Source of the DNA: an uncultured Candidatus Saccharibacteria bacterium
GTDB taxonomy: Bacteria; Patescibacteriota; Minisyncoccia; Phycocordibacterales; DATDWN01
Length of the DNA stretch: 41,293 bases
Direction: 5' to 3'
NCBI GenBank assembly: GCA_964424295.1
Contig: CAYRHZ010000002.1
Coordinates: forward strand, 1 to 41,293
A program made the translations under genes and the position numbers. Shown one piece after another: positions 1,944 through 21,425 of this stretch. The stretch's first letter is position 1. Each line of letters begins with the position of its first letter. The notes below the pieces were generated by a model, which was given only the letters and a program-made list of their open reading frames with translations, had not been told where the DNA came from and did no database searches.

Positions 1944-1954
1944 CTTTAAATAAA

Positions 1955-2787: not shown

Positions 2788-2790
2788 ACA

Positions 2791-2817
2791 AAAGACCACC
2801 TAACAGGTGGTTTTTTG
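2791..2817 (+). terminator. rho-independent terminator-like hairpin immediately after rplE
   Basis: accacct-aac-aggtggt (7-bp stem, 2795-2811) followed by a T6 run. Same ccacc/ggtgg style as hairpins at 20705 and 41186. Confidence 0.6.
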
Positions 2818-2822
2818 TTGTA

Positions 2823-2852
2823 TTGACAAAAAGCGGGAAAGTGTTATATAAT
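2823..2852 (+). promoter_or_regulatory. sigma70-like promoter (TTGACA, 18-nt spacer, TATAAT)
   Basis: TTGACA at 2823-2828 and TATAAT at 2847-2852, read directly from the sequence. Confidence 0.5.
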
Positions 2853-2899
2853 GCAACGCGGAAATGCCTACGTTTGGGCTATCCCACAGGAGACAGCAG

Positions 2900-3421
2900 A
2901 TGACGACAGCTACCGAATCGGCTACCACGACCAGTACGGAACAGGCCAGCACGAAGGACTTCTGGACGCAGGTCCAGGAGGTCGACCTCTCGGCCGTCCC
3001 GACGGATGCCATCGACCTCCACGAGCCGAAGGACGACGCCGTCGTTCTCGGCGAGGCGAGTGACATCTCTCGCAGGATCTACGTGGTGATGAACCGGGAG
3101 TCTCGCAAGTTCCACGAATTCGAGATTCAGCTTCTCGAGAAGGGAAGGAAGCACCAGGAGCTTCACACGGAATCGGGTGACGACGACCACAACTGCGCCG
3201 ACTTCAAGAAGGAAATCCTGCCCCTGGTGGAGGAGGGCAGGAAGCAGGCCGCACGGTTGGACCTCATCAGGTCCCTGTTCTGGACGTCGATGAAGATCGA
3301 CTTCCCGGACCTCGAAGGCAAGGAAAACATCTTCATCGCCCAGGGGTGGAAGGTGGGCCACGAGAAGCAGAGTCCCCGTGGCCGCTTCGGCGTCCGGGTG
3401 TACGAAGTTCAACATCGGTGA
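2900..3421 (+). CDS. hypothetical protein, GC-rich orphan (173 aa; T/S-rich acidic N-terminus, charged helical core)
   Basis: AGGAGA (2888-2893) lies 6 nt before ATG 2900. Tracked ORF 2864..3421 is the same frame. Strong G/C third-position bias. No motif I recognise. Confidence 0.7.
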   Translation: MTTATESATTTSTEQASTKDFWTQVQEVDLSAVPTDAIDLHEPKDDAVVLGEASDISRRIYVVMNRESRKFHEFEIQLLEKGRKHQELHTESGDDDHNCADFKKEILPLVEEGRKQAARLDLIRSLFWTSMKIDFPDLEGKENIFIAQGWKVGHEKQSPRGRFGVRVYEVQHR

Positions 3422-3498
3422 CCTGTTAGGTGCCCATCGGCACAACGGGTAGCGATGCATAGCTAGTCCGCTAAGTAAGTTCAGCGGCAGCAAACAGG
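3422..3498 (+). ncRNA. candidate structured RNA / 3' UTR element closed by cctgtt...aacagg
   Basis: cctgtt (3422-3427) pairs with aacagg (3493-3498). Enclosed hairpins are gtgcc-catc-ggcac, tagc-gatgcata-gcta and ccgct-(10 nt)-agcgg. Hand folding only. Confidence 0.3.
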
Positions 3499-3506
3499 AG
3501 TGTGTG

Positions 3507-3537
3507 GAGGTCGGCATCGTGCCGACCTCTTTTTTGT
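3507..3537 (+). terminator. rho-independent terminator of the GC-rich cassette
   Basis: gaggtcggc-atcgt-gccgacctc (9-bp GC-rich stem) followed by a T6 run. Confidence 0.8.
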
Positions 3538-3739
3538 TTGACTTTCAAAGGCTTAATTGTTAGTATGAACCCCGAGCTAATAAGCTCTATTTTGTTTGAA
3601 ATCATTCATATTCGGCGCATTTCTTTGTCGCCAGCTCCGCCTACTTCCTTTGCAGTATTTTTATACAGCTCGGTCGTATGCTCGCTGTCTTCGCGAACTG
3701 CATCCAAATCTGAATAATTTCAGAAATACATAAAACCTA

Positions 3740-3925
3740 ATGGCAAAAACATCAGTACTAGCAAGAGCAGCAAAGAAACAAAAGTTTTCTACTCGGGCAA
3801 CAAACCGATGTTTTAAATGTGGACGTGGAAGAGCATTCATGCGAGACTTTGGTCTTTGCAGAATCTGTTTCAGAGAGCTAGCCAATGAAGGAAAGATACC
3901 AGGAGTAAAGAAATCAAGCTGGTAA
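3740..3925 (+). CDS. rpsZ: 30S ribosomal protein S14, type Z (zinc-binding)
   Basis: 61 aa with CFKCGR...CRICFR (CxxC...CxxC) and C-terminal KKSSW. Precedes rpsH. Confidence 0.95.
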
Positions 3926-3997
3926 TTAAAAAAAGTAGTCTAGGCAAGTCCGGAGCCACTAGGTAAGGGAAACTACCAAGATATAATAAACAAAAAA

Positions 3998-4384
3998 ATG
4001 GACCCAATCTCAGACATGATAGTTCGAATAAAGAATGCAACAGACTCTAAAAAAGAATCTGTAGTTTTCCCTTATTCAAAAATCAAGCTAGCTATTCTAG
4101 AAATTTTACAAAAGGAAGGATATATAAAGTCTTTTGGTAAAAAGGGAAAGAAAGTTATCAAGTTCATAGATGTTACTTTGAGCTATGACGGAAAAGACGG
4201 AAGAATAAACGGAGTTAAAAGAGTTTCAAAGACTTCAAAAAGAGTTTACGTTGGATCAAAAGAAATCAAGAAAGTTAAAAATGGACTAGGTACTCTTGTT
4301 CTTTCAACTCCAAAAGGAATAATGACAGACAAAATGGCAAGAGATGCAAAGGTCGGTGGGGAAGCTCTATTTGAGATCTGGTAG
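3998..4384 (+). CDS. rpsH: 30S ribosomal protein S8
   Basis: MDPISDMIVRIKNA N-terminus and GGEALFEIW C-terminus. Confidence 0.95.
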   Translation: MDPISDMIVRIKNATDSKKESVVFPYSKIKLAILEILQKEGYIKSFGKKGKKVIKFIDVTLSYDGKDGRINGVKRVSKTSKRVYVGSKEIKKVKNGLGTLVLSTPKGIMTDKMARDAKVGGEALFEIW

Positions 4385-4407
4385 ATCAAAATTTAAATAT
4401 AAAATAT

Positions 4408-4941
4408 ATGTCAAGAATCGGTAAAAAAATAATAAGTATCCCAGCAGGAGTAGAAGTGACTTACAATCACCCAGTCTTAACTGTAAAAGGCAAAGAAGGA
4501 ACTCTTGTTAAAAATTTTAATAAAGATATAGAGATTACAATAACTCCAACTGAGATAACTCTAGTTCCAAAAGTTTCTACTCTGGCTAGTAGAGCTCTAT
4601 GGGGAACATACTCATCTCATATACAAAACATGGTAAAGGGCGTTGCGACTCCTTTCGTTAAGAAGCTTATTCTAGAAGGTATTGGATACAAGTCAGAAGT
4701 AAAAGGAACAAATCTTGTTCTTGCATTAGGATTTTCTCACCAAGTTATCGTTCCTATTCCAGAAGGACTTAAAGTCACTGCAGAAAAGAACATTATAGCT
4801 TCAACAGGTGCAGACAAAGAATTGGTTGGAAGCTTTGCGGCAAAGGTAAGATCTCTAAAGAAACCAGAACCATACAAAGGAAAGGGTATGAGATACGAAG
4901 GAGAAGTTATTAAGCGAAAACAAGGCAAGAAAACTGCATAA
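4408..4941 (+). CDS. rplF: 50S ribosomal protein L6
   Basis: MSRIGKKIISIPAGVEV N-terminus and KPEPYKGKGMRYEGE near the C-terminus. Confidence 0.95.
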   Translation: MSRIGKKIISIPAGVEVTYNHPVLTVKGKEGTLVKNFNKDIEITITPTEITLVPKVSTLASRALWGTYSSHIQNMVKGVATPFVKKLILEGIGYKSEVKGTNLVLALGFSHQVIVPIPEGLKVTAEKNIIASTGADKELVGSFAAKVRSLKKPEPYKGKGMRYEGEVIKRKQGKKTA

Positions 4942-4957
4942 TATCTAAAGTAAAAAA

Positions 4958-5308
4958 ATGAAATCATTAAACTCAAAAATTACAAATAGAATCAGAAGAC
5001 GAAACAGAATTCGATCTAAAATTTCTGGTACTTCTACTATGCCAAGACTTTCTGTGTTCAAATCAAACACAAGTATTTCAGCACAAATCATAGATGACAA
5101 TGCTGGAGTAACACTAGCGACAGCTCACAGTAGAGATGTAAAAGGAAAGGGATTGTTGGTAAAAGCAGCGCTTGTTGGAAAACTTGTTGCAGAGAAAGCT
5201 AAAGCTAAAAACATTGATAAGGTAGTTTTTGACAGAGGAGGATTCTTTTACGCTGGAAACGTTAAGGCTTTAGCAGAGGGAGCTCGAGAAGGAGGGCTTA
5301 AATTTTAA
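4958..5308 (+). CDS. rplR: 50S ribosomal protein L18
   Basis: [25 protein letters not shown] and [27 protein letters not shown] are uL18 signatures. Confidence 0.95.
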
Positions 5309-5314
5309 AAATAT

Positions 5315-5911
5315 ATGGAACCAGAAATAACAAACAATGATGTAAAAATAGAAGAGGTTGCTGTAGAGGCTGTTCCGCAAGAAGCTTCTTCTGAACGTGC
5401 TCCAAGAGATTTTAGAAAAAATTCTAGAAAACCAGGACCAAGAAGAGAAGCTCGAGTTAAGCCTGAGTTCGACCAAAAAATAATCGATATCCGAAGAGTT
5501 ACTCGTGTAGTTACCGGAGGTAGAAGATTTAGCTTCTCAGTTGCTGTTGTTATTGGAGACAGAAAAGGAAAAGTGGGCGTTGGTATGGGTAAGGCAGGGG
5601 ACACACCAGTTGCTATCGACAAAGCAGTAAGAGACGCTAGAAAGAACATGATCAAAGTTAATCTTACAAAGCACGCTTCACCTCTACACGAAGTGTCTGC
5701 TAAATTCTCAAGTTCAAGAGTTCTTATCATGAAGGCGCCTGGAAAGGGAGTTCTTGCTGGTTCATCAGTTCGTGTTGTTCTAGAGCTTGCTGGTATTAAA
5801 GAAGTTTCAGCTAAGATCTTTTCTAGAAGTAAAAACAAAATTAACAATGCAAAAGCAGCTGTTAAAGCATTGAAAATGATGAAGTCTACAAGAGTAAGCC
5901 AGAGCGCATAA
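5315..5911 (+). CDS. rpsE: 30S ribosomal protein S5 (with about 50-aa N-terminal extension)
   Basis: RVTRVVTGGRRFSFSVAVVIGDRKGKVGVGMGKA core. Followed directly by rplO. Confidence 0.94.
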   Translation: MEPEITNNDVKIEEVAVEAVPQEASSERAPRDFRKNSRKPGPRREARVKPEFDQKIIDIRRVTRVVTGGRRFSFSVAVVIGDRKGKVGVGMGKAGDTPVAIDKAVRDARKNMIKVNLTKHASPLHEVSAKFSSSRVLIMKAPGKGVLAGSSVRVVLELAGIKEVSAKIFSRSKNKINNAKAAVKALKMMKSTRVSQSA

Positions 5912-5921
5912 ATAAAATAAT

Positions 5922-6362
5922 ATGGAAAAACACAATTTAAAAAGAAAAACACCTAATAAGAAAACTAGAATAGTTGGAAGAGGTGGAAAGCACGCAAAAA
6001 CTTCTGGAAGAGGAACAAAAGGACAAAACGCTAGAGCCGGACACAAAAAGCGACCAGAAATTCGAGATTTCATCAAGAGAATTCCAAAACTTCGAGGACG
6101 AGGTAAAAACATCAACACAAGTATTCAAAATAAATACCACGTTGTTAACCTTGGTGATTTAAATAATCTATGTAAAAACGGAGACACTATTTCTCCAGAA
6201 ACTTTGGTAAAGTACAATGTTTTAAAGTTAGTAAAAGGAAAATTGCCTGAGGTAAAAATCTTGGGGGGAGGGGTATTAGACAAATCTCTAACCTTTAAGG
6301 GTTGTACAGTTTCTGCTTCTGCGAAATTGCAAATAGAGAAAGCGGGGGGTACTATTAACTAA
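5922..6362 (+). CDS. rplO: 50S ribosomal protein L15
   Basis: GRGGKHAKTSGRGTKGQNARAG glycine/basic N-terminal region. Position before secY. Confidence 0.94.
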   Translation: MEKHNLKRKTPNKKTRIVGRGGKHAKTSGRGTKGQNARAGHKKRPEIRDFIKRIPKLRGRGKNINTSIQNKYHVVNLGDLNNLCKNGDTISPETLVKYNVLKLVKGKLPEVKILGGGVLDKSLTFKGCTVSASAKLQIEKAGGTIN

Positions 6363-6373
6363 ACTGAAGCAAA

Positions 6374-7645
6374 ATGAAAGAATTTTTTAACAAGTTCACT
6401 CTAGTATTTCAAGACTCAGTTCTTCGAAAGAGAATTCTTTTTACTTTGTTTGCATTAGTGCTTTTTAGAGCTTTGTCTGCAGTTCCTATTTCTGGTATCG
6501 ACACTGGAAGACTTGCTCAGTTTTTTTCAAACAACCAGTTTCTAGGTCTACTTAATATTTTTTCAGGAGGAGGCTTATCACAGCTTTCTATTGTGATGCT
6601 TGGAGTTTCACCTTACATTACTGGCTCTATCATAATGCAACTTCTTACTATAATGTCTCCAAAGCTTAAGGCTATGTACCAGGAAGACGGGGAAGCTGGA
6701 AGAAGAAAATTCGCACAATACGGAAGAATGCTTACTGTACCACTTGCTTTACTACAAGGTTATTCATTTATTAAAATATTAGAAACACAACAGGTTATTG
6801 TTGGTCTATCTGGTATTGAGTTAATAACAAATCTAATTGTTATCACAGCTGGTTCCATTTTGCTTATGTGGATTGGAGAACTTGTGTCTGAATATGGAAT
6901 CGGTAATGGTATAAGTCTTATCATATTTGCAGGTATCGTAGCGGCTCTTCCTACTCAAATAGGTCAGCTTATATACGCTTTTGATCCTTCTCAAATACCG
7001 GTATACCTAGCTCTTATGGTTGTTGCGGCGCTTGTAATAGTCTTGGTTGTTGTTATCACAGAAGCAGAAAGACCGATACCTATTGTTCAAGCAAAACAAG
7101 TACGAGGTAACAGAGTTTTTGGGGGAGGATCTTCATATCTACCTTTGCGAATTAACCAAGCCGGAGTGATTCCAATCATATTTGCTCTATCTATACTTTT
7201 GTTCCCGCAAATGATCCTAAGATTTTTGCAAGGAATTAGTAACACTACTGTTCAAAGTATCTCAACTACCGCTTTAAATCTATTGGCAAATAGCTGGTTC
7301 TACGGAGTTTCTTATTTCTTTCTAGTGTTTATTTTCACTTACTTCTATACAGCAGTTACATTTGATCCAGATCAAATCTCTACAAACTTACAAAAGAACG
7401 GTTCATTTATTCCAGGAGTTCGACCGGGAAAATCTACTTCAGATCACATCTCTAGAATCCTAACTAGACTTACTTTGGTTGGAGCATTATTTCTAGGTGT
7501 AATAGCTGTGTTGCCGTTAATAGCATCACAAGTAACTGGTATTACTGCCATATCTGTTGGAGGAACATCACTTCTAATCGTAGTTTCAGTTGTTATTGAT
7601 TTGATTAAGAAGGTTGATGCTCAGGTATCTATCCGAGAGTACTAA
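6374..7645 (+). CDS. secY: preprotein translocase subunit SecY
   Basis: 423-aa polytopic membrane protein with GISPYITGSIIMQLL-type TM2 (GVSPYITGSIIMQLLT). Canonical position. Confidence 0.96.
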   Translation: MKEFFNKFTLVFQDSVLRKRILFTLFALVLFRALSAVPISGIDTGRLAQFFSNNQFLGLLNIFSGGGLSQLSIVMLGVSPYITGSIIMQLLTIMSPKLKAMYQEDGEAGRRKFAQYGRMLTVPLALLQGYSFIKILETQQVIVGLSGIELITNLIVITAGSILLMWIGELVSEYGIGNGISLIIFAGIVAALPTQIGQLIYAFDPSQIPVYLALMVVAALVIVLVVVITEAERPIPIVQAKQVRGNRVFGGGSSYLPLRINQAGVIPIIFALSILLFPQMILRFLQGISNTTVQSISTTALNLLANSWFYGVSYFFLVFIFTYFYTAVTFDPDQISTNLQKNGSFIPGVRPGKSTSDHISRILTRLTLVGALFLGVIAVLPLIASQVTGITAISVGGTSLLIVVSVVIDLIKKVDAQVSIREY

Positions 7646-7680
7646 AATCTTTCAAATCTGACGAACTCCAATCTATTCAC

Positions 7681-7711
7681 AAAAAAGACCTCTAAATCAG
7701 AGGTCTTTTTT
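7681..7711 (+). terminator. rho-independent terminator after secY
   Basis: agacctct-aaatc-agaggtct (8-bp stem, 7686-7706), with an A-run before and a T6 run after. Confidence 0.7.
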
Positions 7712-7724
7712 GTACCCGTGTCAA

Positions 7725-7754
7725 TTGGAATTTATGGTCCTTTATGGTTATATT
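7725..7754 (+). promoter_or_regulatory. promoter-like boxes TTGGAA, 18-nt spacer, TATATT
   Basis: TTGGAA at 7725-7730 and TATATT at 7749-7754. The spacer contains the direct repeat tttatggt x2. Confidence 0.35.
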
Positions 7755-7771
7755 TGTGTTGGGGGGGATTG

Positions 7772-8185
7772 ATGAAGATCATCGTCGCCGACAGAAGAGG
7801 GATCGTTTTTTCTGCTATCGAGGCGGGCCTGCGCAAGAGGAACATTCAGACCCCGACTGTGCTGGCCAGGGACGGAAAGACACTCCGCGAGTTTCTTGGC
7901 CTCTGCGCAGACGTAGTGGTGGTTTCGGCACAGCTTTTGCCGGGCTACACCACCAACGAACAACTGGCAGAGGAGGTGAAGAAACAGTGCTCTAGCGCCG
8001 TGTTTGTTGTCTACAACAGCGTGGTGGAGAAGCACGGTCCAAACGTCGACCTTCGGATTCCCAGCTTTGTTGGTGGTGGAGACAAAACTATCGGTCTTCA
8101 CATCGTAGACTATCTTTCCGACCACGTATTCGTCGTCGGCACTGGAGTCTACGTCCAGCTCAGCCTTGTATTCTCGTTCGATTAG
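7772..8185 (+). CDS. hypothetical protein, GC-rich orphan; receiver-like (CheY-fold) pattern lacking the phospho-acceptor Asp
   Basis: GGGGGGA (7761-7767) precedes ATG 7772. MKIIVADRR..., VVVVSAQLLPG and VFVVYNS align by eye with the native receiver at 27239 (ILLVDDD, IILMDIIMPG, IIMLTNQ), but with Ser in place of the acceptor Asp. Confidence 0.55.
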   Translation: MKIIVADRRGIVFSAIEAGLRKRNIQTPTVLARDGKTLREFLGLCADVVVVSAQLLPGYTTNEQLAEEVKKQCSSAVFVVYNSVVEKHGPNVDLRIPSFVGGGDKTIGLHIVDYLSDHVFVVGTGVYVQLSLVFSFD

Positions 8186-8215
8186 AGGGCGGACTTTTTG
8201 TCGCCCTTTTGTTTT
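8186..8215 (+). terminator. terminator-like hairpin after the second GC-rich ORF
   Basis: agggcgg-ac-ttttt-gtcgccct imperfect stem followed by TTTTGTTTT. Confidence 0.5.
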
Positions 8216-8233
8216 GTATGATATTATATCTTT

Positions 8234-8824
8234 ATGAATCAATTTACTTTCATTATCTTTGGACCTTCGGGTTCAGGGAAGGGTACTCAAGCACATTTAT
8301 TAATTGATCTTTTAAAAAAAATAGATAGCGAAAGAAAGGTAATGTATATTGAAACAGGACAGAGGTTTCGAGAATTTGCTGATAGTGGTTCTTATACTGC
8401 AACTTTGGTGAAGGGGGTTATGAGCACAGGGGCACTTCTTCCAGAATTTTTACCAATATGGATGTGGACAGAAATTCTAGTTCACGATTTTGCAGGTAAC
8501 GAGAATATTATTTTTGAAGGAGTATCTCGACGAGAGCACGAAGCCCCTATACTTGATTCGGCAATGCGATTTTATAAAAGAGAAAATCCTTACGTTATTT
8601 CAATAAATGTTTCAAAAGAATGGGCAACACAAAGACTTAATGCTCGAGGTAGATATGATGATACTCCTGCAGATATTATAGAGAGATTAAATTGGTACGA
8701 TAAAAATGTTGTACCAGCAATAGACTTTTTCAAGAATGATCCATACTATAAAATTCTAGAAATTAATGGAGAGCAGAGTATAGAGGACGTACATAAGGAA
8801 ATTGTACAAAAACTAGGAATCTGA
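8234..8824 (+). CDS. adk: adenylate kinase
   Basis: P-loop FGPSGSGKGTQA. 196 aa. Canonical position between secY and map. Confidence 0.9.
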   Translation: MNQFTFIIFGPSGSGKGTQAHLLIDLLKKIDSERKVMYIETGQRFREFADSGSYTATLVKGVMSTGALLPEFLPIWMWTEILVHDFAGNENIIFEGVSRREHEAPILDSAMRFYKRENPYVISINVSKEWATQRLNARGRYDDTPADIIERLNWYDKNVVPAIDFFKNDPYYKILEINGEQSIEDVHKEIVQKLGI

Positions 8825-8847
8825 TAGGCTGGCCTTTAAACAATAGG

Positions 8848-9615
8848 GTGATTAAAACAAAGAAACCAGAAGAAATAGAGATAATGAAAGAGGGCGGAAA
8901 ACGTCATGCTTTTATCTTGTCAGAATTGGCAAATATGGTGGCTCCAGGCATCTCTACTCAAATACTTGAAGACAAGGCAAGGGTGCTCATAGAAGAGGGC
9001 GGCGACAAGGCTGCGTTCTTAAACTACACACCAAGAGGGGCTAAAAGGCCTTACCCAGCAGCTCTTTGTGTTTCTGTAAACAACGAAATTGTTCACGGTA
9101 TACCAAACGAAAATCCAATGATATTGCAGGAAGGAGATGTTGTTACGCTCGACCTAGGACTTGTTCATGGGGGACTAATAACAGACAGTGCAATAACTGT
9201 GGGTGTGGGAAATGTAAGTGATGAGAATAGAAAACTAATGGAACACTGTAGAGAGGCACTTTATCTAGGAATAAAAGAGGCAAAAGGAGGAAATCATGTA
9301 GGAGATATTGGCTTTGCAATCGAATCTTTTGTAAGGCCTTTGGGATATGGCTTGTCAGAGGGATTGGCAGGCCACGGAGTTGGCTATAAGGTACACGAAG
9401 ATCCATTTGTTCCAAACGAAGGACGCCCTGGTCAAGGGGAAAAACTTATTCCCGGAATGGTTATTGCAATAGAGCCTATGATAACTCTTGGAAGTAGTAA
9501 AATCACATTAGATAAAGACGGATATACATACAAAACAAAAGACGGTTCAAATGCCGCACACTGTGAACACACCATTGTTGTTACAGAAGGCGATCCAATT
9601 ATTCTAACAAGCTAG
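8848..9615 (+). CDS. map: type I methionine aminopeptidase
   Basis: VHGIPN, DVVTLDLG, GHGVG and EPM metal-site motifs. GTG start per the ORF track. Confidence 0.93.
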   Translation: MIKTKKPEEIEIMKEGGKRHAFILSELANMVAPGISTQILEDKARVLIEEGGDKAAFLNYTPRGAKRPYPAALCVSVNNEIVHGIPNENPMILQEGDVVTLDLGLVHGGLITDSAITVGVGNVSDENRKLMEHCREALYLGIKEAKGGNHVGDIGFAIESFVRPLGYGLSEGLAGHGVGYKVHEDPFVPNEGRPGQGEKLIPGMVIAIEPMITLGSSKITLDKDGYTYKTKDGSNAAHCEHTIVVTEGDPIILTS

Positions 9616-9696
9616 AACTTTAGCCTAGCGAACTCTTGGCTTATATTTGTGAAGTTCTTTGGTTGTGGTATTGTATAGAAAATTAACCCAAACAAT

Positions 9697-10299
9697 ATGC
9701 ACCCAAAAAAAGAAAGAACACTAGTCATCATAAAACCGGATGGAATTCAGAGAACTTTAATAGGGGAGATAATAAAAAGATATGAAAGGGTGGGTCTAAA
9801 ATTAGTCGGAATAAAAATGCTTGTTCCAGACGCTCCACTTATTGAAAAACATTACACACTAGATCCAGAATGGAGAAGAATTACTGGTGAAAAAACTATT
9901 GCTAGCTATATTAAAAAGGGTGAAACTCCATGGACGACAGATCCGCTAGAAGTTACGAGAGTTGTTTTGCAAAATTTAATAAAATTTATGACATCAGGTC
10001 CAGTGGTGGCAATGGTTTGGGAAGGTGCGCACGCTGTAGAAATAGGAAGAAAGGTGACTGGAGGAACAGAGCCTAGAACCTCGGATGCCGGAACAATTAG
10101 AGGAGATTATGTCTTAGATTCCTATATGGTTTCAGATCATGACAAAAGAGCTGTTAGAAATCTGGTTCATGCATCAGGTTCACCCAAGGAAGCGGACATG
10201 GAGATTGAACATTGGTTTAGTGCAAATGAACTTACAGATTATAGACTAATTCAAGATCTGATTCTTTATGACGTTAACTTAGATGGTATTCTCGAATAG
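9697..10299 (+). CDS. ndk: nucleoside-diphosphate kinase (long form, 200 aa)
   Basis: ERTLVIIKPDGIQR, the active-site-like NLVHASGS, and an internal insertion relative to 140-150-aa Ndk proteins. Confidence 0.88.
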   Translation: MHPKKERTLVIIKPDGIQRTLIGEIIKRYERVGLKLVGIKMLVPDAPLIEKHYTLDPEWRRITGEKTIASYIKKGETPWTTDPLEVTRVVLQNLIKFMTSGPVVAMVWEGAHAVEIGRKVTGGTEPRTSDAGTIRGDYVLDSYMVSDHDKRAVRNLVHASGSPKEADMEIEHWFSANELTDYRLIQDLILYDVNLDGILE

Positions 10300-10304
10300 G
10301 TTCA

Positions 10305-10778
10305 CTATTGTCTTAAATAGTTTCTAAAATTAAAGTTTTTACCAGCTATTTTATAGCTACTACTTACTGAGCCAGGTCTTCCATTCAATGGTGCGGTATA
10401 TGTAAAAACCACATCGGAAACTTGGAATCTATCATTATTTAGATCTACAGCAACTCCAGTTCCTCGAGATATTGTCATTTTATTTCCAGTCTGTGATATG
10501 ACTAAAGGACTTTGCGCCCCCATGTCCGGTCTAGATATGGTCAGTATTGTTCCTCCACCAGAAACAGAAGCCCCTGTTGCTGAAGTTAATGCCCAGTTTA
10601 TTTTTCTATTCAAGAAAGTCCCTTCCTCTTCTATTTTTGTTGAGTCTATATTTCTTCTACCACCTTCAAGCAAGTTGTATGTTCCAACCACAGCTCCAGA
10701 CATAATAATCCCAAATAGAGCAATGTAAACCATTGTTTCCATCAAAGTAAACCCGGAATTGTTTTTTCGACTTTTCAT
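10305..10778 (-). CDS. prepilin-type N-terminal cleavage/methylation domain protein (pseudopilin)
   Basis: NNSGFTLMETMVYIALFGIIMSG is a class III signal (G|FTLxE plus hydrophobic helix). Confidence 0.85.
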   Translation of the reverse strand: MKSRKNNSGFTLMETMVYIALFGIIMSGAVVGTYNLLEGGRRNIDSTKIEEEGTFLNRKINWALTSATGASVSGGGTILTISRPDMGAQSPLVISQTGNKMTISRGTGVAVDLNNDRFQVSDVVFTYTAPLNGRPGSVSSSYKIAGKNFNFRNYLRQ

Positions 10779-13917: not shown

Positions 13918-13922
13918 ATATT

Positions 13923-15167: not shown

Positions 15168-15252
15168 TTTAGGAGTTTCCTGCTTCTTCGGCTTTGGCAG
15201 AACTCTACTCCTAAGGTGTGCGTTTTACAACTTGAATTATCTTAAAAATGTG

Positions 15253-16413
15253 TTAATTTTTTGTGGCCTTTTTTACTGCATTTGCCACTGCTTTCGCTAC
15301 TCTTTTATCAAAAGGACTCGGAATAATATAACTAGGGGACAGTTCTTTTTTTGAAATTAGATTTGCTATTGCCCCAGCTGATGCAAGTTTCATTTCCGTT
15401 GTTATTTGCTTTGCGCCAGAATCTAGGACACCTCTAAATATTCCAGGAAAAACTAATACATTGTTTATTTGGTTAGGGTAGTCACTTCTACCAGTTCCAA
15501 AAACTTTTATTTTAGTTTTTTTAGCTTTTTCCATACTTATTTCTGGATTTGGGTTAGCCATTGCCAAGACTATTGGATCTTCTGCCATTTTTTTTACCCA
15601 TTCTGGTTTTAGAGCATCAGCTACGGACACACCGATAAAAACATCTGCAAGAGCTAGTGCCTCTTGTAGTCCACCTGTTTCATTTTTGCCATTTGTTTTT
15701 TCAGCAATCGCTTTCTTATATTTGTTTAAGTCTGTTCTATTTTTGTGCAGAGCGCTTTTACTATCCAGCATTATTATATTTTTTCCTGTTACTCCGTAAC
15801 TCATTAGGAGGTTAGCTATGGCTATAGCTGCAGAACCAGCACCGTTTATTACAACTTTAACCTTTGCTTTGTCCTTTTTTACAACCTTAAGGGCATTAAT
15901 TAGTGCTGAAAGTACCACAATAGCAGTACCATGCTGGTCGTCATGCATTACAGGGATATCCAACTCTTTTTTTAGTCTTTCCTCAATCTCAAAACATTTT
16001 GGTGCAGAAATGTCTTCTAAGTTTATTCCACCAAAACCAACAGATATTATTTTTATTGTTTTAATGATTTCTTCTGTATTTTGTGTGTCCAAACAAATAG
16101 GGTAGGCATCTACCCCAGCAAACTCTTTAAAAAGTATTGCCTTACCTTCCATCACTGGAAGTGCTCCATACGGACCAATATTGCCTAGTCCCAAGACGCT
16201 TGAGCCATCGGAAATGACAGCAACAGAGTTTGATTTTAGAGTGAGTCTGTTCGCCAGACTTTTGTCTTTTGATAAAACTCTAGAAACCTCTGCTATACCT
16301 GGCGTGTAGGCTACAGACAAGTCATTCTTATTTTTTATGGGTATTTTAGAATAAACCCCTAGTTTCCCCTTAAGTTTTCTATGTTTAGCCAGTGAAAGTT
16401 TATAATAGTCCAT
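15253..16413 (-). CDS. NAD(P)-dependent malic enzyme (short, 386 aa)
   Basis: LSVAYTPGIAEV, FGGINLEDISAPKCFEIE and VINGAGSAAIAI (Rossmann GxGxxA) are typical of malic enzymes. Confidence 0.88.
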   Translation of the reverse strand: MDYYKLSLAKHRKLKGKLGVYSKIPIKNKNDLSVAYTPGIAEVSRVLSKDKSLANRLTLKSNSVAVISDGSSVLGLGNIGPYGALPVMEGKAILFKEFAGVDAYPICLDTQNTEEIIKTIKIISVGFGGINLEDISAPKCFEIEERLKKELDIPVMHDDQHGTAIVVLSALINALKVVKKDKAKVKVVINGAGSAAIAIANLLMSYGVTGKNIIMLDSKSALHKNRTDLNKYKKAIAEKTNGKNETGGLQEALALADVFIGVSVADALKPEWVKKMAEDPIVLAMANPNPEISMEKAKKTKIKVFGTGRSDYPNQINNVLVFPGIFRGVLDSGAKQITTEMKLASAGAIANLISKKELSPSYIIPSPFDKRVAKAVANAVKKATKN

Positions 16414-16538
16414 ATTTAAAAAAGTAAGTATCTATTGTACTACAATCCTAAAATATTAGTATTGTCTTATTTTACATAAAAACATACAATTAAGTGGTAA
16501 TTTAAATTAATAATAAACTAGTCGGATTTTAATAAAAT

Positions 16539-19500
16539 ATGAAAAAAATTTTAATACTTGTTTTGTTCTATCTCGCATTACTTACTCCATTAAAAGATCT
16601 CTCTGCTCAATCAAGCGATATAATATTCTCGATGAACTGTGCATCGTCTAGCGATACCAATTGTGGTTGGCCAGGTAGCGTACCAGAAAACGCACATCAC
16701 TCCAGAACTTTCTTGCAAGGCGGTGGGCCAAATGGTCAAAATGCCATGCGCTTCAATTACCTCAATAGTGGGGGATATGATGAGTTTTATTTAGGGTGGT
16801 CTGGATTCATCGAGCAGGAAAACCTTCCGCAAGGATCCACTCGCTATTATCGTTTCCGACTTCGCTATACTCCTGAAACTATATTCAATGGCTATAACTC
16901 AAGTGGAGGAACAGGGCGTATGTTAAACAAGTATCTCATTGTGGGTGATGGTTGTGGTAGTAATTGTAGACCTATTCTCCAGGCTTATACCTACGACATG
17001 ACAGGTAATTTTAGAGTCACGTTGCAAATTGATGGTGGTGCATATCCAATAACAGTTGACAATCTCACAGCTGGAGTCTGGTATGATATTCAGCTAGAAC
17101 TTAACACTTCTAGTAGTACTTCTAACCCAAATGGTAGCTATAAGATGTGGGTTAACAACAATAACTATTCTTCACCAAGTGCACAGACTTCTGGTTTCCA
17201 ACTCAACCCAGTTCGTTGGGGTTATGTTGCTTTTGGATTCTACTCAAACCATGTAGTAACTTCTCAAGGGCAAGTAGGCATGATTCTGACAGATTTCCAA
17301 GCAGCAAGGAGTTTTAATTCAAACTGGTATGGTGGTGGCTCAACCACACCTCCTCCTCCAACCGTTACTGTTCCTACAGCACCAGCATCTCTTTCAGCGT
17401 CACCAGCAGGAACATCACAAGTAAACCTATCCTGGACAGACTCATCAAACAACGAAACAGGATTCAGAATAGAAAGAAAGACAGGTTCAGCTGGAACATA
17501 CGCAGAAATAGCTACAGTAGGTGCAAATACAACAACATATCAAAACACAGGTCTTACTGCTTCTACACAGTATTACTACAGAGTAAGAGCATACAACTCT
17601 GCGGGTAACTCGTCTTACTCAGTAGAATCTATAGCAGTGACTTCTAACCCAACAACAGTATCTCCTTCAACACGATTTACAGTAGGGCAACGTGTTCAAA
17701 CTACAGCTAATGTAAATGTTAGGAGTACAGCATCAGCCACAGGAGCTCTCTTGGGGACACAAGCACTTGGAGCACTGGGTACAATAGTAAGTGGGGGCAC
17801 TTCAGTAGACGGGTACTACTGGTGGAATGTTAACTTCGATTCAGGCGTAGATGGTTGGAGTGTAGAAACATTTCTAAATCCATATACTGCACCTGCAACA
17901 CCAACCCCAACAACTAGTGGTGTATTCTTTAACGAAGGATGGGAGTCTGGAAGTAAAGCCAACTCTTTCAATAGTAGTGGTTATGGAAATTTATTAAACA
18001 GTACCCAATATAGTGTTCAAACATCTACTCGATCTACTGGAAGTTATGGTTTAAGACATGGTCTTACAACGGGTATGACTGGAGGGGATGCTCAATATGC
18101 GACACAACACTTTGGGGATTCAGTTACAGGACCAGTTGTTTCAGGTACAGCTGGTAACACATATAGTGACGTATATGCTCAATGGAAGGTATTCTACTCA
18201 CCAGGGTTTAATTTTGCCGTAAATCCAAAGCAGGTGATTTTTGGTACACAAGATTCCAGAAGACACGACAATTCTTGTTGTAATCCTTGGGTATCACACT
18301 ATATGCTAATAAATAGTTATGGTGGTTATTTTCAAGCAGAAGGAAATAATAAACAAGGGGCAAGTGGACAATGGTTAAACATAGGACTAAACCAAAGTGG
18401 ATATTCAGGATCAAATAGATACGCTATACAATCTGGAAGATGGTATACGATAGAAGTTAGAAGAAGATTAAATGATGCAAACCAAGATAATGGTGTATTT
18501 GAAATGTGGATTGATGGAACACTTGTTGCTCGACATTCGAATGTAAGATGGAGAGTTCCATGGACAGGAACATTTGGAGATGATTTCACACGTGGCACAA
18601 ACTTCTTTATGATATCGGATTATCTAACCGATGGAATACCAGTGCCAGCAAATCAAGAAATATACTATGATGATGTAAAACTTAGTACAAGTTATATAGG
18701 CACTAGTGGCACAACAACCCCTACACCCCCACCGCCAGTAACACCAACAGCAGACATTAGGGCAAACAACTCAACTTCACCAATATCAATAGTTAGTGGT
18801 AGTTCAGCCACAATATCTTGGGCATCTACAAATACAACTACATGTTCTGTATCACCAAGTAGTTGGACAGGAACAAGTGGTTCCCAATCAACAGGAGCAC
18901 TTACAGCTAGTAGAACATATACAATCTCTTGTACTGGTTCAGGCGGGACAGTTACAGACTCTATTTCGGTTAATGTTACACCTCCACCCGACACAACACC
19001 TCCAGCAGTCTCTGTATCATCACCGGTTTCAGGTTCTACAGTAAGTGGAACAGTAACAGTCTCAGCTAATGCATCAGACAACATAGGTGTAGCAGGAGTT
19101 CAATTTAGATTAAATGGAGTGAACCTAGGAATTGAAGACACAACATCTCCATATTCTGTATCATGGAACACCACAACAGCAACAAACGGAATACACACAC
19201 TTACAGCTGTTGCTAGAGATGCAGCTGGTAACACAACCACATCATCCGCTGTGTCTGTTACAGTAAATAATGTAACTGTAACACCTGCTCCAACAGTTAC
19301 AATCTCAGCATCTCCTACATCTGTAACTGTAGGAAGTTCATCAACACTTTCATGGTCTTCAACAAACGCAACATCTTGTACAGCAAGTGGAGCGTGGTCA
19401 GGAAGTAGAGGAACATCCGGAACCATGTCTGTTTCTCCAACTACCTCATCAACATATACTCTTTCATGTACAGGAGCGGGAGGAACAGTAACACAGTCAA

Positions 19501-20246
19501 CTACTGTTTTTGTGGAAACAAATACACAAGTAACTACAAATCCAGGAACAGTTACAACTCTATCTGTGTCACAAACAAACACAACATCGGTCACACTTTC
19601 ATTTGTTGAAGTAAATGATGGAACTGGGCTTCCATCACAATATGATGTGAGATTTGCTTCTCCAACCCTATCTTGGGGATCAGCGGGAAGTGTGACATCA
19701 GGAACATGTTCTACGCCACTACAAGGAACAACAATAGGAGGCACAAAGACTTGTACAGTAGACAACCTTAATCCGGGTACACAGTATGGATTCCAACTAG
19801 TTTCATTTAGAGGAACACTTAATCAGAATGCTGTGTTTGGTGGTCTTTCCAACAAAGTTACAACTACTACTCTTACAACCACTGCTCCTCCACCTCCACC
19901 ACCAACAGAAACCCTACCGTCTTTGGATATAATGGAGCCAAAAGTAGGAGACAGAGTCCAAACAACAACTAGAGTTAGTGTAAGAGAAACTCCAGGTGGT
20001 GACAGAATAGGTTCTCAACCTAGAAATTCTAAAGGTACGGTAATAGAGGGACCAATAGAGGGGGGTAGTCATCTTTGGTACAAAGTAGACTATGACTCTG
20101 GTGTAGATGGCTGGTCATCAGCAACCTATCTAACCAAAGTTAGTGTAACAGCTATGACAGAAGATGAGATAAGAAACAGTATTGCGAACATATTCTTGTT
20201 GATTAATCAACTACAAGAACAACTAAATAAAATGAAGATTAATTAG
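16539..20246 (+). CDS. 1235-aa secreted multidomain surface protein
   Basis: Signal peptide MKKILILVLFYLALLTPLKDLSAQ. Two jelly-roll/LamG-like regions (KMWVNNN..., FEMWIDGTLV), two FN3-like units (YYYRVRAYNSAGNS; GTQYGFQLVSF) and two SH3b-like units (DGYYWWNVNFDSGVDGW; HLWYKVDYDSGVDGW). Also Ig-like repeats and P/T linkers. Domain names are by-eye inference. Confidence 0.9.
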   Translation: MKKILILVLFYLALLTPLKDLSAQSSDIIFSMNCASSSDTNCGWPGSVPENAHHSRTFLQGGGPNGQNAMRFNYLNSGGYDEFYLGWSGFIEQENLPQGSTRYYRFRLRYTPETIFNGYNSSGGTGRMLNKYLIVGDGCGSNCRPILQAYTYDMTGNFRVTLQIDGGAYPITVDNLTAGVWYDIQLELNTSSSTSNPNGSYKMWVNNNNYSSPSAQTSGFQLNPVRWGYVAFGFYSNHVVTSQGQVGMILTDFQAARSFNSNWYGGGSTTPPPPTVTVPTAPASLSASPAGTSQVNLSWTDSSNNETGFRIERKTGSAGTYAEIATVGANTTTYQNTGLTASTQYYYRVRAYNSAGNSSYSVESIAVTSNPTTVSPSTRFTVGQRVQTTANVNVRSTASATGALLGTQALGALGTIVSGGTSVDGYYWWNVNFDSGVDGWSVETFLNPYTAPATPTPTTSGVFFNEGWESGSKANSFNSSGYGNLLNSTQYSVQTSTRSTGSYGLRHGLTTGMTGGDAQYATQHFGDSVTGPVVSGTAGNTYSDVYAQWKVFYSPGFNFAVNPKQVIFGTQDSRRHDNSCCNPWVSHYMLINSYGGYFQAEGNNKQGASGQWLNIGLNQSGYSGSNRYAIQSGRWYTIEVRRRLNDANQDNGVFEMWIDGTLVARHSNVRWRVPWTGTFGDDFTRGTNFFMISDYLTDGIPVPANQEIYYDDVKLSTSYIGTSGTTTPTPPPPVTPTADIRANNSTSPISIVSGSSATISWASTNTTTCSVSPSSWTGTSGSQSTGALTASRTYTISCTGSGGTVTDSISVNVTPPPDTTPPAVSVSSPVSGSTVSGTVTVSANASDNIGVAGVQFRLNGVNLGIEDTTSPYSVSWNTTTATNGIHTLTAVARDAAGNTTTSSAVSVTVNNVTVTPAPTVTISASPTSVTVGSSSTLSWSSTNATSCTASGAWSGSRGTSGTMSVSPTTSSTYTLSCTGAGGTVTQSTTVFVETNTQVTTNPGTVTTLSVSQTNTTSVTLSFVEVNDGTGLPSQYDVRFASPTLSWGSAGSVTSGTCSTPLQGTTIGGTKTCTVDNLNPGTQYGFQLVSFRGTLNQNAVFGGLSNKVTTTTLTTTAPPPPPPTETLPSLDIMEPKVGDRVQTTTRVSVRETPGGDRIGSQPRNSKGTVIEGPIEGGSHLWYKVDYDSGVDGWSSATYLTKVSVTAMTEDEIRNSIANIFLLINQLQEQLNKMKIN

Positions 20247-20256
20247 AAATACAATA

Positions 20257-20288
20257 TAAAAAAACTCGAGTTAACTCGGGTTTTTTTA
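20257..20288. terminator. bidirectional terminator / extended palindrome
   Basis: aactcgag-ttaa-ctcgggtt stem flanked by an A7 run and a T7 run. The outer arms acaatat...atattgt also pair. Confidence 0.7.
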
Positions 20289-20344
20289 TATTGTATTTTT
20301 TCTAAAACATTGCTCGGTTCACTATGTGTATATATAATACATTT

Positions 20345-20653
20345 ATGTTTAAAAAAATAACGTCATTTATTATTAGTTCCACATTATTATTTAGTTTTTT
20401 ACCAAATATTTCTTTTGCGCAAACATCACCAACCGCTCAGCCACTGGTAACTCAGGGTGATATGGTTTATTTAGGTAAATTTTCCGTTCCATCCAATGAT
20501 GGTACTGGTAGAGGAAATTCTGTTGATAGTCTGGATTATGGAGGTTTTGGTTTAGGAATGGGAGCAGATGGTTGGGTAGCAGAGAAATACATAACCAAAG
20601 CTACTGTAGCAATGACTGATGAAGATTACAGACAAAACAAAACATATATCTAA
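20345..20653 (+). CDS. small secreted protein, collapsed paralog of the C-terminus of the 1235-aa protein
   Basis: Signal peptide MFKKITSFIISSTLLFSFLPNISFAQ. The tail GADGWVAEKYITKATVAMTDEDYRQN parallels GVDGWSSATYLTKVSVTAMTEDEIRNS at 20100-20180. ATG 20345 lies 6 nt after TATAAT (20333-20338). Confidence 0.65.
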   Translation: MFKKITSFIISSTLLFSFLPNISFAQTSPTAQPLVTQGDMVYLGKFSVPSNDGTGRGNSVDSLDYGGFGLGMGADGWVAEKYITKATVAMTDEDYRQNKTYI

Positions 20654-20704
20654 TCATCAAATACTTACAAGAGAGAATCGCTGGTCAGAATTAAAAAAAA
20701 CATC

Positions 20705-20728
20705 AAAACCACCCTTTTGGGTGGTTTT
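20705..20728. terminator. bidirectional terminator hairpin
   Basis: aaaa-ccaccc-tttt-gggtgg-tttt, between the + strand ORF and the - strand tRNA-Ser. Confidence 0.7.
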
Positions 20729-20737
20729 GATTTACTG

Positions 20738-20826
20738 CGGAGACGGACGGATTCGAACCGTCGGTACCGTTTAAAGGGTACACCTCTTTAGCAAAGAGGC
20801 ACGTTAGACCACTCTGACACGTCTCC
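20738..20826 (-). tRNA. tRNA-Ser (anticodon GCU), class II
   Basis: Reverse complement is ggagacg...cgtctcc-g. Features: 7-bp acceptor, anticodon loop ttGCTaa (20790-20792), long variable arm gtacc/ggtac, T arm gacgg-ttcgaat-ccgtc, G73. I could not pair the D stem cleanly by hand. Confidence 0.8.
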
Positions 20827-20840
20827 AGTTGATATTTAGG

Positions 20841-20868
20841 TTAGCATATTTTATGTATTAGGTATAAT
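20841..20868 (+). promoter_or_regulatory. promoter-like boxes TTAGCA, 16-nt spacer, TATAAT
   Basis: TTAGCA at 20841-20846 and TATAAT at 20863-20868. Confidence 0.4.
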
Positions 20869-20887
20869 ATTCCTCTCGGAGACCTTC

Positions 20888-21336
20888 ATGCCAGACAAGA
20901 ATGGCTAACCACAAAAGAGTTCGCCGACCTTATTTCCGTCGGAGAGTGCACTGTCTATAGGTGGATTTACGACGACATCATCCCGTACTTCAACAGCCGC
21001 ATACCAAGGAGGTACGCAAACAAGATCGAGAGATTGTGGGCGAAAACCTGCACACCTTCCGAGTTCGCTAGACATCTCGGCGTCAGCCCATCGAAAGTAG
21101 ACATTCTGATGAGTAAGGGGAAACTTCGGGGCATCAGGGTGCTGAGAAAGGTCAGGCTGTATCTAAAGGACCTGAAAAAGGTCAGAGAGGATAAAGACCT
21201 GGTCCAGAAAGGAGATGTTGTTTACAAAAACAAGAGGGGCTTTGCGCGGTACTCGAAGAAGAGAAAGACCGCGATTGCTCTTTTGGGTAACCATTCCCCA
21301 AACAGAAAGAAAAGAGGTAAAAAGGCAGATTTGTGA
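20888..21336 (+). pseudogene. frameshifted tandem excisionase/MerR-type HTH protein gene (GC-rich)
   Basis: GGAGA (20878-20882) plus ATG 20888 opens only MPDKNG*, with the stop at 20906-20908. The long frame from 20902 encodes two HTH units (WLTTKEFADLISVGECTVYRWIYDDIIP... and CTPSEFARHLGVSPSKVDILMSKGKLRGIRV...) plus a basic tail. That frame has no ATG/GTG/TTG before TTG 21034. Confidence 0.6.
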
Positions 21337-21339
21337 TTA

Positions 21340-21366
21340 GGGCGCCCGTGATTTTTCCGGGCGCCC
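21340..21366 (+). terminator. GC-rich hairpin after the HTH gene
   Basis: gggcgcccg-(9 nt)-cgggcgccc is a 9-bp stem. The downstream T-tract is weak. Confidence 0.45.
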
Positions 21367-21372
21367 GTTCTA

Positions 21373-21401
21373 TTACAATTTCATTAAAAATTTTGTATAC
21401 T
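21373..21401 (+). promoter_or_regulatory. promoter-like boxes TTACAA, 17-nt spacer, TATACT, 9 nt upstream of the partial tRNA 5' copy
   Basis: TTACAA at 21373-21378 and TATACT at 21396-21401. The repeat ggataggtgggtgag begins at 21411. Confidence 0.45.
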
Positions 21402-21410
21402 TGGAAAATT

Positions 21411-21425
21411 GGATAGGTGGGTGAG
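21411..21425 (+). repeat. 15-nt exact copy of the 5' end of the tRNA at 21529
   Basis: ggataggtgggtgag occurs at 21411-21425 and at 21529-21543, separated by 103 nt of mostly GC-rich sequence. Confidence 0.9.

Follow-up and report, generated by a model that had tools for sequence, protein, structure and literature searches.

Three short GC-rich units, here named C1 (2900-3421), C2 (7772-8185) and C3 (20888-21336), stand out in a 41,293-nucleotide stretch of DNA (the window, that is, the whole stretch analyzed) from an uncultured Candidatus Saccharibacteria bacterium. They are probably moron-like accessory cassettes of a clade-wide class, swapped by homologous recombination via conserved flanks, with GC-richness as a persistent property of the class. 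C1 is flanked by rplE and rpsN, C2 by secY and adk, and C3 by two tRNA-Ser genes. The window, with a GC content of 38.2%, encodes rplE, rpsN, rpsH ... secY, adk, map and ndk, as well as three tRNAs, type IV pilus genes and competence-like genes. It is part of an AT-rich Patescibacteria chromosome, Paceibacteria/Parcubacteria-like, in which native genes do not use Shine-Dalgarno (SD) sequences. An assembly chimera is ruled out by the presence of the same junctions in independent NCBI, JGI, ENA and Logan assemblies. No account of GC-rich cassettes led by an SD in the Patescibacteria ribosomal operon was found within the full-text library searched.

Composition and signals of the three units

The native reference set, consisting of 43 open reading frames (ORFs) of the window, has a GC content at third codon positions (GC3) of 0.268 +/- 0.038, against 0.83 for C1, 0.66 for C2 and 0.62-0.63 for C3 (z-scores of 15, 10.4 and 9.4, respectively), and no ORF of the window has an intermediate value. 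Only three long islands lie clearly above the background GC, at 2801-3575 (56%), 7726-8200 (53%) and 20876-21600 (48%). GC content by codon position follows a coding pattern in the frames of C1, C2 and C3, and first codon positions (GC1) are also raised in C1 and C2 (0.60 vs 0.47). The GC-rich stretch comprises the 5' untranslated region (UTR), the ORF and the 3'UTR; the promoters are not GC-rich, and the host genes bordering the units are AT-rich, with GC3 values of 0.29 for the last 100 codons of L5, 0.22 for the last 100 of SecY and 0.24 for the first 100 of adk. The three units fall between -4.4 and -7.8 on the first principal axis of codon usage, and native genes between -1.15 and 1.88.

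Each unit also carries a strong SD, with predicted anti-SD pairing of -7.4 (C1), -10.5 (C2) and -6.6 kcal/mol (C3). Among the 43 native genes none reaches -6 kcal/mol, and their mean of -0.84 is weaker than that of random positions (-2.7). The original prediction, made from the sequence and its ORFs, had described the units as compositionally atypical and led by an SD that native genes lack, and both observations are borne out. A TATAAT-like box stands 6-10 nt upstream of the ATG in many of the native genes, suggesting that their initiation is widely leaderless or SD-independent. The sigma70-like boxes predicted for the units by a consensus scan score 12/12 for C1, 10/12 for C3 and only 9/12 for C2, and they are not unique to the units because native genes also have -10-like boxes. 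A GC-stem hairpin closes each of the three, as expected (3506-3530, 8184-8209 and 21340-21366), although that of C3 lacks a good T-run.

C1 and C2 were correctly seen to start directly at the T-runs of the L5 and SecY terminators. The short repeats that bracket them, TTTTTTGTT and TTTTGTA, had been interpreted as possible target duplications or simply terminator T-runs; they occur 13 and 23 times in the window (both strands) and are not target duplications but the T-runs of one terminator and the next, with a -35 box (TTGAC) after each. No repeat or end sequence common to the units was found, no inverted repeat brackets any of them, and no integrase or transposase domain was detected among the window ORFs scanned, the last in agreement with the earlier reading. 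Integron cassettes were rejected as a candidate on the lack of a common repeat and of an integrase among the scanned ORFs, and transposons, insertion sequences or miniature inverted-repeat elements on the lack of bracketing inverted repeats, with flanking repeats not beyond chance.

These observations bear on the proposal, made in the original prediction, that one GC-rich donor or mobile element gave all three units as pieces of cargo inserted with target-site duplications. The common direction of the compositional deviation and the similar architecture of promoter, SD and hairpin would fit such a source, but GC3 differs among the units, and their codon usage agrees in direction only, with relative synonymous codon usage correlations of 0.50, 0.18 (C1 vs C3) and 0.46. 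The C1 and C2 families are slot-specific, recurring at their own slots in relatives and never linked or found together elsewhere, and the orthologs of C3 are AT-rich native genes at the same locus. Together with flanking T-runs at chance frequency and the missing common ends and integrase, this makes a single donor extremely improbable.

Slots in related genomes

Ribosomal protein S5 was used as a query to recover 80 related loci (the best 86% identical), all from Patescibacteria metagenome-assembled genomes (MAGs) labeled Parcubacteria, Paceibacterota, Zambryskibacteria, Minisyncoccia or 'Saccharibacteria'. Operon genes were named in all loci and each spacer was measured; the main slot comparison covered 41 loci whose S5 identity is 70% or more; these, like other related loci, are designated below by L numbers. 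Ordinary operon spacers have a median of 11 bp (n = 478, three slots excluded). The gaps L2/S19, L5/S14 and SecY/Adk are bimodal, being either shorter than 200 bp or 0.4-1.4 kb long and GC-rich. Spacers of at least 400 bp are present at L2/S19 in 21/25 loci, at L5/S14 in 22/33 and at SecY/Adk in 17/35, and 13, 16 and 13 of these long spacers, respectively, contain an ORF with GC3 at least 0.2 above that of the host. Spacers below 200 bp account for 2, 10 and 16 cases, including L005, L010, L011, L019, L024, L027, L028 and L043 at L5/S14 (46-119 bp) and 14 loci at SecY/Adk (22-112 bp). At the empty sites, a terminator is followed by the next promoter, and the cassette of other loci lies exactly between the two, as can be seen for L005 at L5/S14; at SecY/Adk, the secY terminator directly adjoins adk in L005 and L014. 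Such empty sites in relatives had been anticipated and are a feature of horizontally exchanged accessory DNA. Where S5 identity falls below 70%, in the more distant relatives, the slots are for the most part tight or occupied by genes whose composition is ordinary.

The genes found in the slots are alike in character and unlike in descent. They encode proteins of ~150 aa, have a median GC3 of 0.58 in hosts of GC3 ~0.27, and are co-oriented with the operon in 42 of 46 cases. Anti-SD pairing of -6 kcal/mol or stronger is predicted for 88% of 41 slot ORFs vs 14% of 403 native ORFs (p = 1.5e-19), and the GC/SD signature is thus shared across the class. In BLAST clustering, each slot has several unrelated families, none of which is shared between two slots, and none of 13 slot proteins tested contains a Pfam domain.

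Altogether, the predicted order of a unit is the native terminator, a sigma70-type promoter of its own abutting the T-run, a GC-rich 5'UTR with an SD, a small GC-rich ORF, its own hairpin or terminator, and the next native promoter. Each unit would thereby be transcribed and SD-translated alone, without disturbing the flanking operon. In relatives, the slots L2/S19, L5/S14, SecY/Adk and tRNA-Ser/tRNA-Ser, all bounded by very conserved genes, are either empty or occupied by other, unrelated GC-rich, SD-led genes. Other GC3-outlier ORFs were noted in relatives (L001 697-1251 and 16752-17066, L009 14286-14696), located at L2/S19, between Map and Ndk (L009) and outside the operon. L044 has at 1951-4260 a block of ~2.3 kb with 61% GC and ORFs of GC3 0.84-0.89.

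The cassette between rplE and rpsN

The features of the L5/S14 slot are, all on the + strand:

2194-2787, +, rplE (L5), identified with Pfam
2795-2819, +, rplE terminator hairpin ACCACCTGTTAGGTGGT with T-run, left border of the L5/S14 slot
2823-2852, +, predicted C1 promoter TTGACA-18-TATAAT, 12/12 in the consensus scan, AT-rich (30% GC)
2853-2899, +, C1 5'UTR, 57% GC, with SD AGGAGA at 2888-2893 from anti-SD pairing
2900-3421, +, C1 ORF, 173 aa, GC3 0.83, characterized by protein family and predicted structure
3422-3537, +, C1 3'UTR, 55% GC, followed by an intrinsic terminator at 3506-3530 (hairpin of 11 pairs) and T-run
3538-3593, +, native promoter of rpsN (S14), TTGACT-17-TAGTAT, with conserved leader hairpin, right border of the slot
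3740-3925, +, rpsN ORF, S14

The unit begins directly 3' of the L5 terminator, and the rpsN promoter and leader hairpin beyond its other end are kept in L001, L004, L005, L011 and L019. C1 is not an orphan: a word-indexed protein search gave its own protein only, but a full HMMER search detected 47 relatives, 150-215 aa long, among 1.8 billion representatives. They form an uncharacterized family (~160-215 aa) with the motif H-x3-H..C..FW..EFPEL, in which the H-x3-H, Cys, Trp and EFPEL-like elements are conserved. The nearest relative is a gene of L004 in the same L5/S14 slot, 46% identical and with GC3 of 0.71-0.72, whose promoter and 5'UTR are conserved with those of C1; nonsynonymous divergence (dN) for C1 is 0.44 and synonymous divergence (dS) 1.19. 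Among all locus ORFs, a hidden Markov model (HMM) of the family matches the window and L004 only, and a single fast-evolving family for all L5/S14 slot genes was rejected on this basis. Distant members are located elsewhere: L098 carries one, L094 has one downstream of a tag-like gene, and in L100 the gene precedes glyS. In three such contexts their GC3 exceeds that of the neighbors (0.73 vs 0.43, 0.51 vs 0.26-0.41 and 0.58 vs 0.32-0.42); a fourth family gene, with GC3 of 0.83, is on a 749-bp contig without neighbors, and one member is annotated in Ca. Taylorbacteria. Scans of genomes for further close copies gave the contig of L004 or nothing, and distant members could not be placed in genomes, their alignments being too divergent.

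The AlphaFold2 (AF2) model of C1 has a predicted local distance difference test score (pLDDT) of 89; it shows small beta elements and a long hairpin of antiparallel helices, and its N-terminus is disordered. No significant PDB neighbor was found for this fold, only generic helical hairpins at E >0.2, and C1 has no Pfam, PHROG or PADLOC match. The model and the conserved H-x3-H..C suggest that the product is a helical-hairpin protein, possibly metal-binding. C1 relatives run ~45 residues past the C-terminal stop of C1 in the window, and the 3'UTR may be a decayed C-terminal coding tail; a tblastn search gave no significant match. A structured RNA gene, originally proposed after C1, was rejected: no Rfam family matched, and the fold z-score of -3 is largely due to the terminator.

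Next to the slot, a hairpin with U-run, GAGCTAATAAGCTC TATTTT (3574-3593), lies 3' of the rpsN promoter in the window and in the same five relatives, and may be an attenuator or an autoregulatory site. The ~150 nt upstream of the window rpsN ATG (3588-3739, 39% GC) are absent from relatives.

The cassette between secY and adk

The SecY/Adk slot consists of the following features:

6374-7645, +, secY, identified with Pfam
7686-7711, +, secY terminator hairpin with T-run, read from the sequence, left border of the SecY/Adk slot
7725-7771, +, C2 promoter-like site TTGGAA-18-TATATT (9/12, 7725-7754) and SD GGGGGGGA at 7761-7768
7772-8185, +, C2 ORF, 137 aa, GC3 0.66, with a receiver-like model
8184-8233, +, C2 terminator 8184-8209 (9 pairs) with T-run, then adk promoter with -10 box TATTAT at 8222-8227
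8234-8824, +, adk, identified with Pfam

C2 begins directly 3' of the SecY terminator, and the block GTCAATTGGAATTT upstream of it is conserved in L001. Its homologs, six from databases (52-98% identical) and those of L001, L002, L004, L006, L009 and L012, are all located between secY and adk, and a jackhmmer search started from C2 recovers the C2 family only. A dN/dS of ~0.15 against both L001 and L006 marks C2 as a constrained protein under purifying selection. A motif A(A/C)TTCCAAATCTGGCGAACTCC... stands right after the secY stop (window 7646-7680); it is conserved in L016, L020, L025, L032, L034 and L001, and is present in many loci with or without a cassette downstream.

The AF2 model of C2 (pLDDT 85) has receiver domains as its best PDB matches, with template modeling (TM) scores of 0.5-0.63 and E ~1e-3. 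Sequence identity to these domains is 11-23%, and no Pfam match, PF00072 included, was obtained at E <=0.1. At the phospho-acceptor position, according to an alignment read against the predicted strands, is Ser52 following the strand VVVS, invariant in 7/7 family members. The model thus points to a receiver-like (CheY-like alpha/beta) domain without the acceptor Asp, as had been guessed from the letters, and the protein is likely to work as an adaptor or regulator independent of phosphorylation. Among the matches of the model are atypical orphan response regulators and pseudo-receivers (for example HP1043, PDB 2hqo and 2pln). C2 would resemble them as a stand-alone domain without phospho-acceptor Asp (TM ~0.6); it differs in having neither a Pfam Response_reg match nor an output domain.

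Exchange between lineages

The alleles in the slots do not follow the lineages that carry them. L001 and L006 share 99% identity in SecY and 93% in Adk but only 45% in C2, and over all pairs the identities of C2 and SecY are nearly uncorrelated (Spearman rho 0.13). L084 and L087 have PilM, ComF and PilB 100% identical and C3 86% identical, in a rearranged neighborhood. Between the window and L002, divergence is ~6.5% through secY and ~1% over 7695-8394 (~700 bp), a tract that comprises C2 and reaches 160 nt into adk; dS is 0.02 for C2 and 0.29 for SecY. A recent recombination tract spanning C2 best describes this pattern of divergence, and, judging from allele identities, cassette alleles are exchanged independently of the host lineage. 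L002 (~1474-1676), compared with window 7646-7700, has ~105 extra nt between secY and C2, an indel at the border of the tract.

Neighboring native genes have been replaced as well. Adk of the window (8234-8824) is at most 60% identical to that of any relative, against 86-87% for SecY, and Ndk (9697-10299) is 80-86% identical to that of L022, L010, L008 and L028, compared with 49-54% to the closest loci L001, L004, L006 and L009. By these identities, adk and ndk are phylogenetically mosaic yet AT-rich.

The unit between two tRNA-Ser genes

The features of the C3 locus are:

20737-20826, -, tRNA-Ser(GCU), left border of the locus, with the same arrangement in L084 and L087
20841-20887, +, predicted C3 promoter TTAGCA-16-TATAAT (10/12, 20841-20868) and SD GGAGA at 20878-20882
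20888-21336, +, C3, GC-rich allele of a 149-aa tandem HTH_17 protein, frame broken
21340-21366, +, C3 hairpin GGGCGCCCG-N9-CGGGCGCCC, a 9-bp GC stem without good T-run, kept in all relatives
21411-21734, +, tRNA-Ser(ACU) at 21529-21616, right border of the locus, plus inserts

C3 matches HTH_17 (PF12728) twice in its long frame (E = 1.4e-12, 48.1 bits, cut-off 27), in keeping with the tandem helix-turn-helix (HTH) protein originally proposed, and its product is, by these domain matches, a tandem-HTH_17 DNA binder; among PHROG families, it matches only generic excisionase/regulator HTH families. The earlier description of C3 needs a correction: the long frame has no in-frame start codon, the ATG at 20888 being out of frame, and 1 nt is deleted after 20907 (codon 7, TAC to TA) in the window only, the frame being intact in L088, L090, L087 and L084. 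The reading frame is disabled in this assembly, where an assembly error is conceivable.

Six homologs of 149-150 aa, beginning MPDKNGYT..., were found. The orthologs occupy the same locus (tRNA-Ser(GCU), gene, tRNA-Ser(ACU), by comF and pilM) and keep the same promoter, SD and hairpin; the promoter/SD stretch of C3 is host-like and conserved in AT-rich relatives. The gene is AT-rich in five lineages (GC3 of 0.25-0.35 in L090, L087, L084, L091 and L093), and a GC3 of 0.60-0.63 was found only in the window and L088, which are 96% identical. The search for additional alleles in representative genomes gave two only (L103 and L104), both with the allele of L084 (GC3 0.26). Since the orthologs are AT-rich genes with the same locus, promoter, SD and hairpin, C3 is not the foreign gene it had been taken for; the comparison identifies it as an allele of a resident gene that was either recoded or replaced. 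Nor can its SD count as a foreign mark, the AT-rich orthologs carrying GGAGG. Compared with the nearest AT-rich ortholog, synonymous changes comprise 49 AT-to-GC vs 9 GC-to-AT, transitions and transversions alike, while pairs of AT-rich alleles have symmetric synonymous changes. GC1 and GC2 of C3 are unshifted relative to the orthologs, and its AT-rich flanks match those of relatives.

Several observations concern the surroundings of C3. The tRNA-Ser(ACU) gene (window 21529-21616; 6525-6612 in both L084 and L087) has an anticodon loop, TTACTAA, conserved in relatives, and is located beside a normal tRNA-Ser(GCU) gene; an A34 serine tRNA is unusual for bacteria. Only in the window and L088 (531-909) is it flanked by two ~100-nt inserts, with duplicated tRNA ends (GGATAGGTGGGTGAG at 21411 and 21529, AAATCTCGCCCTATCCGCA at 21599 and 21716). 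The first insert has 53% GC; an inverted copy of the core of the second lies next to duplicated parts of the other tRNA-Ser in L084 (~5790-5990) and L085. Judged by this arrangement, the inserts look like a small element targeting tRNA-Ser genes. Upstream, a motif of ~51 nt (GG.G.AGATGG.TGG...) occurs at 17844-17894, 20100-20150 and 20561-20611; it is common to a 1235-aa Big_7/fn3 surface protein (16539-20246) and the downstream small ORF 20324-20653, which suggests a common C-terminal module.

Possible origin and persistence of the GC-richness

An unsampled GC-richer reservoir is the main rival of the favored reading. The cassettes would then be recent or repeated imports from one or more such sources, not yet ameliorated, and C3 a xenologous replacement; GC-richer Patescibacteria, their plasmids or phages, and host bacteria are candidate reservoirs. 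Composition, SD and consensus signals like those of 'ordinary' bacteria, the demonstrable frequency of allele exchange and the raised GC1 of C1 and C2 all fit this idea. So does the roughly host-independent GC3 of cassettes, which is 0.55 and 0.58 in hosts of 0.38 and 0.27, and 0.59 and 0.53 in hosts of 0.29 and 0.43; relatives of 47-52% GC, moreover, are present among the related loci. This account is disfavored because high GC3 persists across saturated synonymous divergence in AT-rich genomes (C2 alleles keep GC3 of 0.49-0.66 throughout at dS >2.6 between them) and because GC3 is elevated in every context sampled. It is further disfavored because no GC-rich or viral source was found: no homolog of the cassettes appeared in a GC-rich genome in the contexts that could be read, and no relatives of C1, C2 or C3 in IMG/VR viral contigs. 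A phage origin was rejected on the last result together with PHROG and PADLOC searches, which gave no matches for C1, C2 or seven other slot proteins, and only the generic excisionase/HTH matches of C3. Finally, the change in C3 is confined to the ORF, which also speaks against a fading signature, and genes that are natively AT-rich keep that composition when exchanged at these loci. Import from such reservoirs is therefore held to be possible rather than probable.

The high GC of the cassettes could also have arisen by GC-biased gene conversion, if the slots are recombination hot spots where repeated heteroduplex repair biased to G/C lifts the GC of weakly selected sites. Recombination-linked conversion of this kind has reportedly been proposed for bacteria by Lassalle and colleagues in 2015. 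Recombination is frequent at the slot loci, and the shift of C3 is almost purely synonymous, including both transitions and transversions. This explanation is nevertheless disfavored because the borders are sharp, and exchangeable neighbors and AT-rich C3 alleles stay AT-rich: GC3 is 0.22-0.29 in the codons of L5, SecY and adk next to the units even though the low-divergence tract enters adk, adk and ndk are mosaic and unshifted, and AT-rich C3 alleles are equally exchangeable. To our knowledge, an effect from 0.27 to 0.83 is far beyond the reported bacterial cases of such conversion, which is considered very unlikely here.

With moderate confidence, the GC-richness of the cassettes is regarded as actively favored rather than as a fading single-donor signature. 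In the favored reading, that of accessory cassettes swapped between lineages, exchange would occur by homologous recombination through conserved flanks after DNA uptake, for which the genome encodes ComF-like and type IV pilus components, and neither integrase nor target duplication would be required. A GC-favoring force would act on the transcribed unit, through selection on transcript or codons or through biased conversion; this is the weakest step. A further proposal, itself rather doubtful, is that of two gene 'dialects' in one genome of this clade, an AT-rich, SD-less and often leaderless bulk and a minority of small, self-transcribed, SD-dependent, GC-rich genes. Their composition would be actively imposed and maintained on the transcribed unit, through selection on transcript or codons or through targeted conversion, and not donor-inherited. 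C3 would then be an ortholog caught in the change between the two dialects, from AT-rich to GC-rich, within one lineage, its promoter, its terminator and its amino-acid composition being left intact.

Several points weigh against the reading of the units as exchanged cassettes of persistent GC-richness. Expression, transcription starts and SD use are predicted only, the C2 promoter match is weak (9/12), the C3 hairpin has no proper T-run, and the functions of C1 and C2 are drawn from fold resemblance of their models. The evidence for a recombination tract comes from one strain pair and ~700 bp, and the incongruent allele identities could partly result from very fast, uneven divergence. A GC-rich reservoir may still exist; few family contexts were readable, most of them on short contigs. 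The GC1 of C1 and C2 (0.60 vs 0.47) is raised as after long residence under any GC pressure. For C3, import of a xenolog whose source is an unsampled, GC-richer relative would explain the data no worse than change in situ. Synonymous divergence is close to saturation in all comparisons, and no physical cause was found for the GC-favoring force.

Comparison with known systems

No stretch of a bacterial chromosome is regarded as more stable than the ribosomal-protein/secY operon. Across this clade of the candidate phyla radiation (CPR), this operon would contain docking gaps for swappable, self-expressed genes unlike the host in composition and initiation. If GC-richness is actively maintained, the cassettes would offer a clean natural system for studying gene-level base composition apart from genome-wide mutation bias, and would show SD-dependent and SD-independent initiation coexisting in one cell. 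In practice, such units will confuse detectors of horizontal gene transfer (HGT), binning and contamination filters, and the concatenation of ribosomal-protein markers in Patescibacteria MAGs. The fast-evolving proteins encoded in the slots are also candidates for functions in strain-level interactions of episymbionts.

The closest likeness is to phage 'morons', reportedly described by Juhala and colleagues and by Hendrix and colleagues in 2000. Like them, the units are single genes with their own predicted promoter and terminator, located between genes adjacent in relatives, unlike their surroundings in composition, dispensable and variable. They differ from morons in residing in the ribosomal-protein/secY/adk super-operon and a tRNA pair of a bacterial chromosome and not in a prophage, the context being a ribosomal protein operon and a tRNA/pilus locus; no viral homologs were found for them, and their mode of translation initiation is unlike that of native genes. 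Chromosomal HGT hot spots and core-flanked islets, such as the SAR11 hypervariable region between rRNA genes, are said to have been described by Wilhelm and colleagues in 2007 and by Oliveira and colleagues in 2017. As in these, fixed intervals bounded by conserved genes collect gain, loss and replacement through flanking homology and without dedicated recombinases, but here the units are single small co-oriented genes inside the most conserved operon, with a GC-rich, SD-led signature, in contrast to the accessory DNA of AT-rich genomes, which usually exceeds the host in AT content.

Integron cassettes are likewise small one-gene units, mostly of unknown function, at a fixed place and often of atypical composition. 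The present units differ from them in having no integrase, attC-like common repeat or platform promoter, and each has its own promoter and terminator. In the bldA/TTA system of Streptomyces and in codon-biased stress regulons, mostly regulatory genes are written in genome-rare codons. By analogy only, a minority of genes in rare codons could couple translation to particular tRNAs or states; in the units described here, the entire transcript, including its UTRs, is GC-rich, and not just a few codons.

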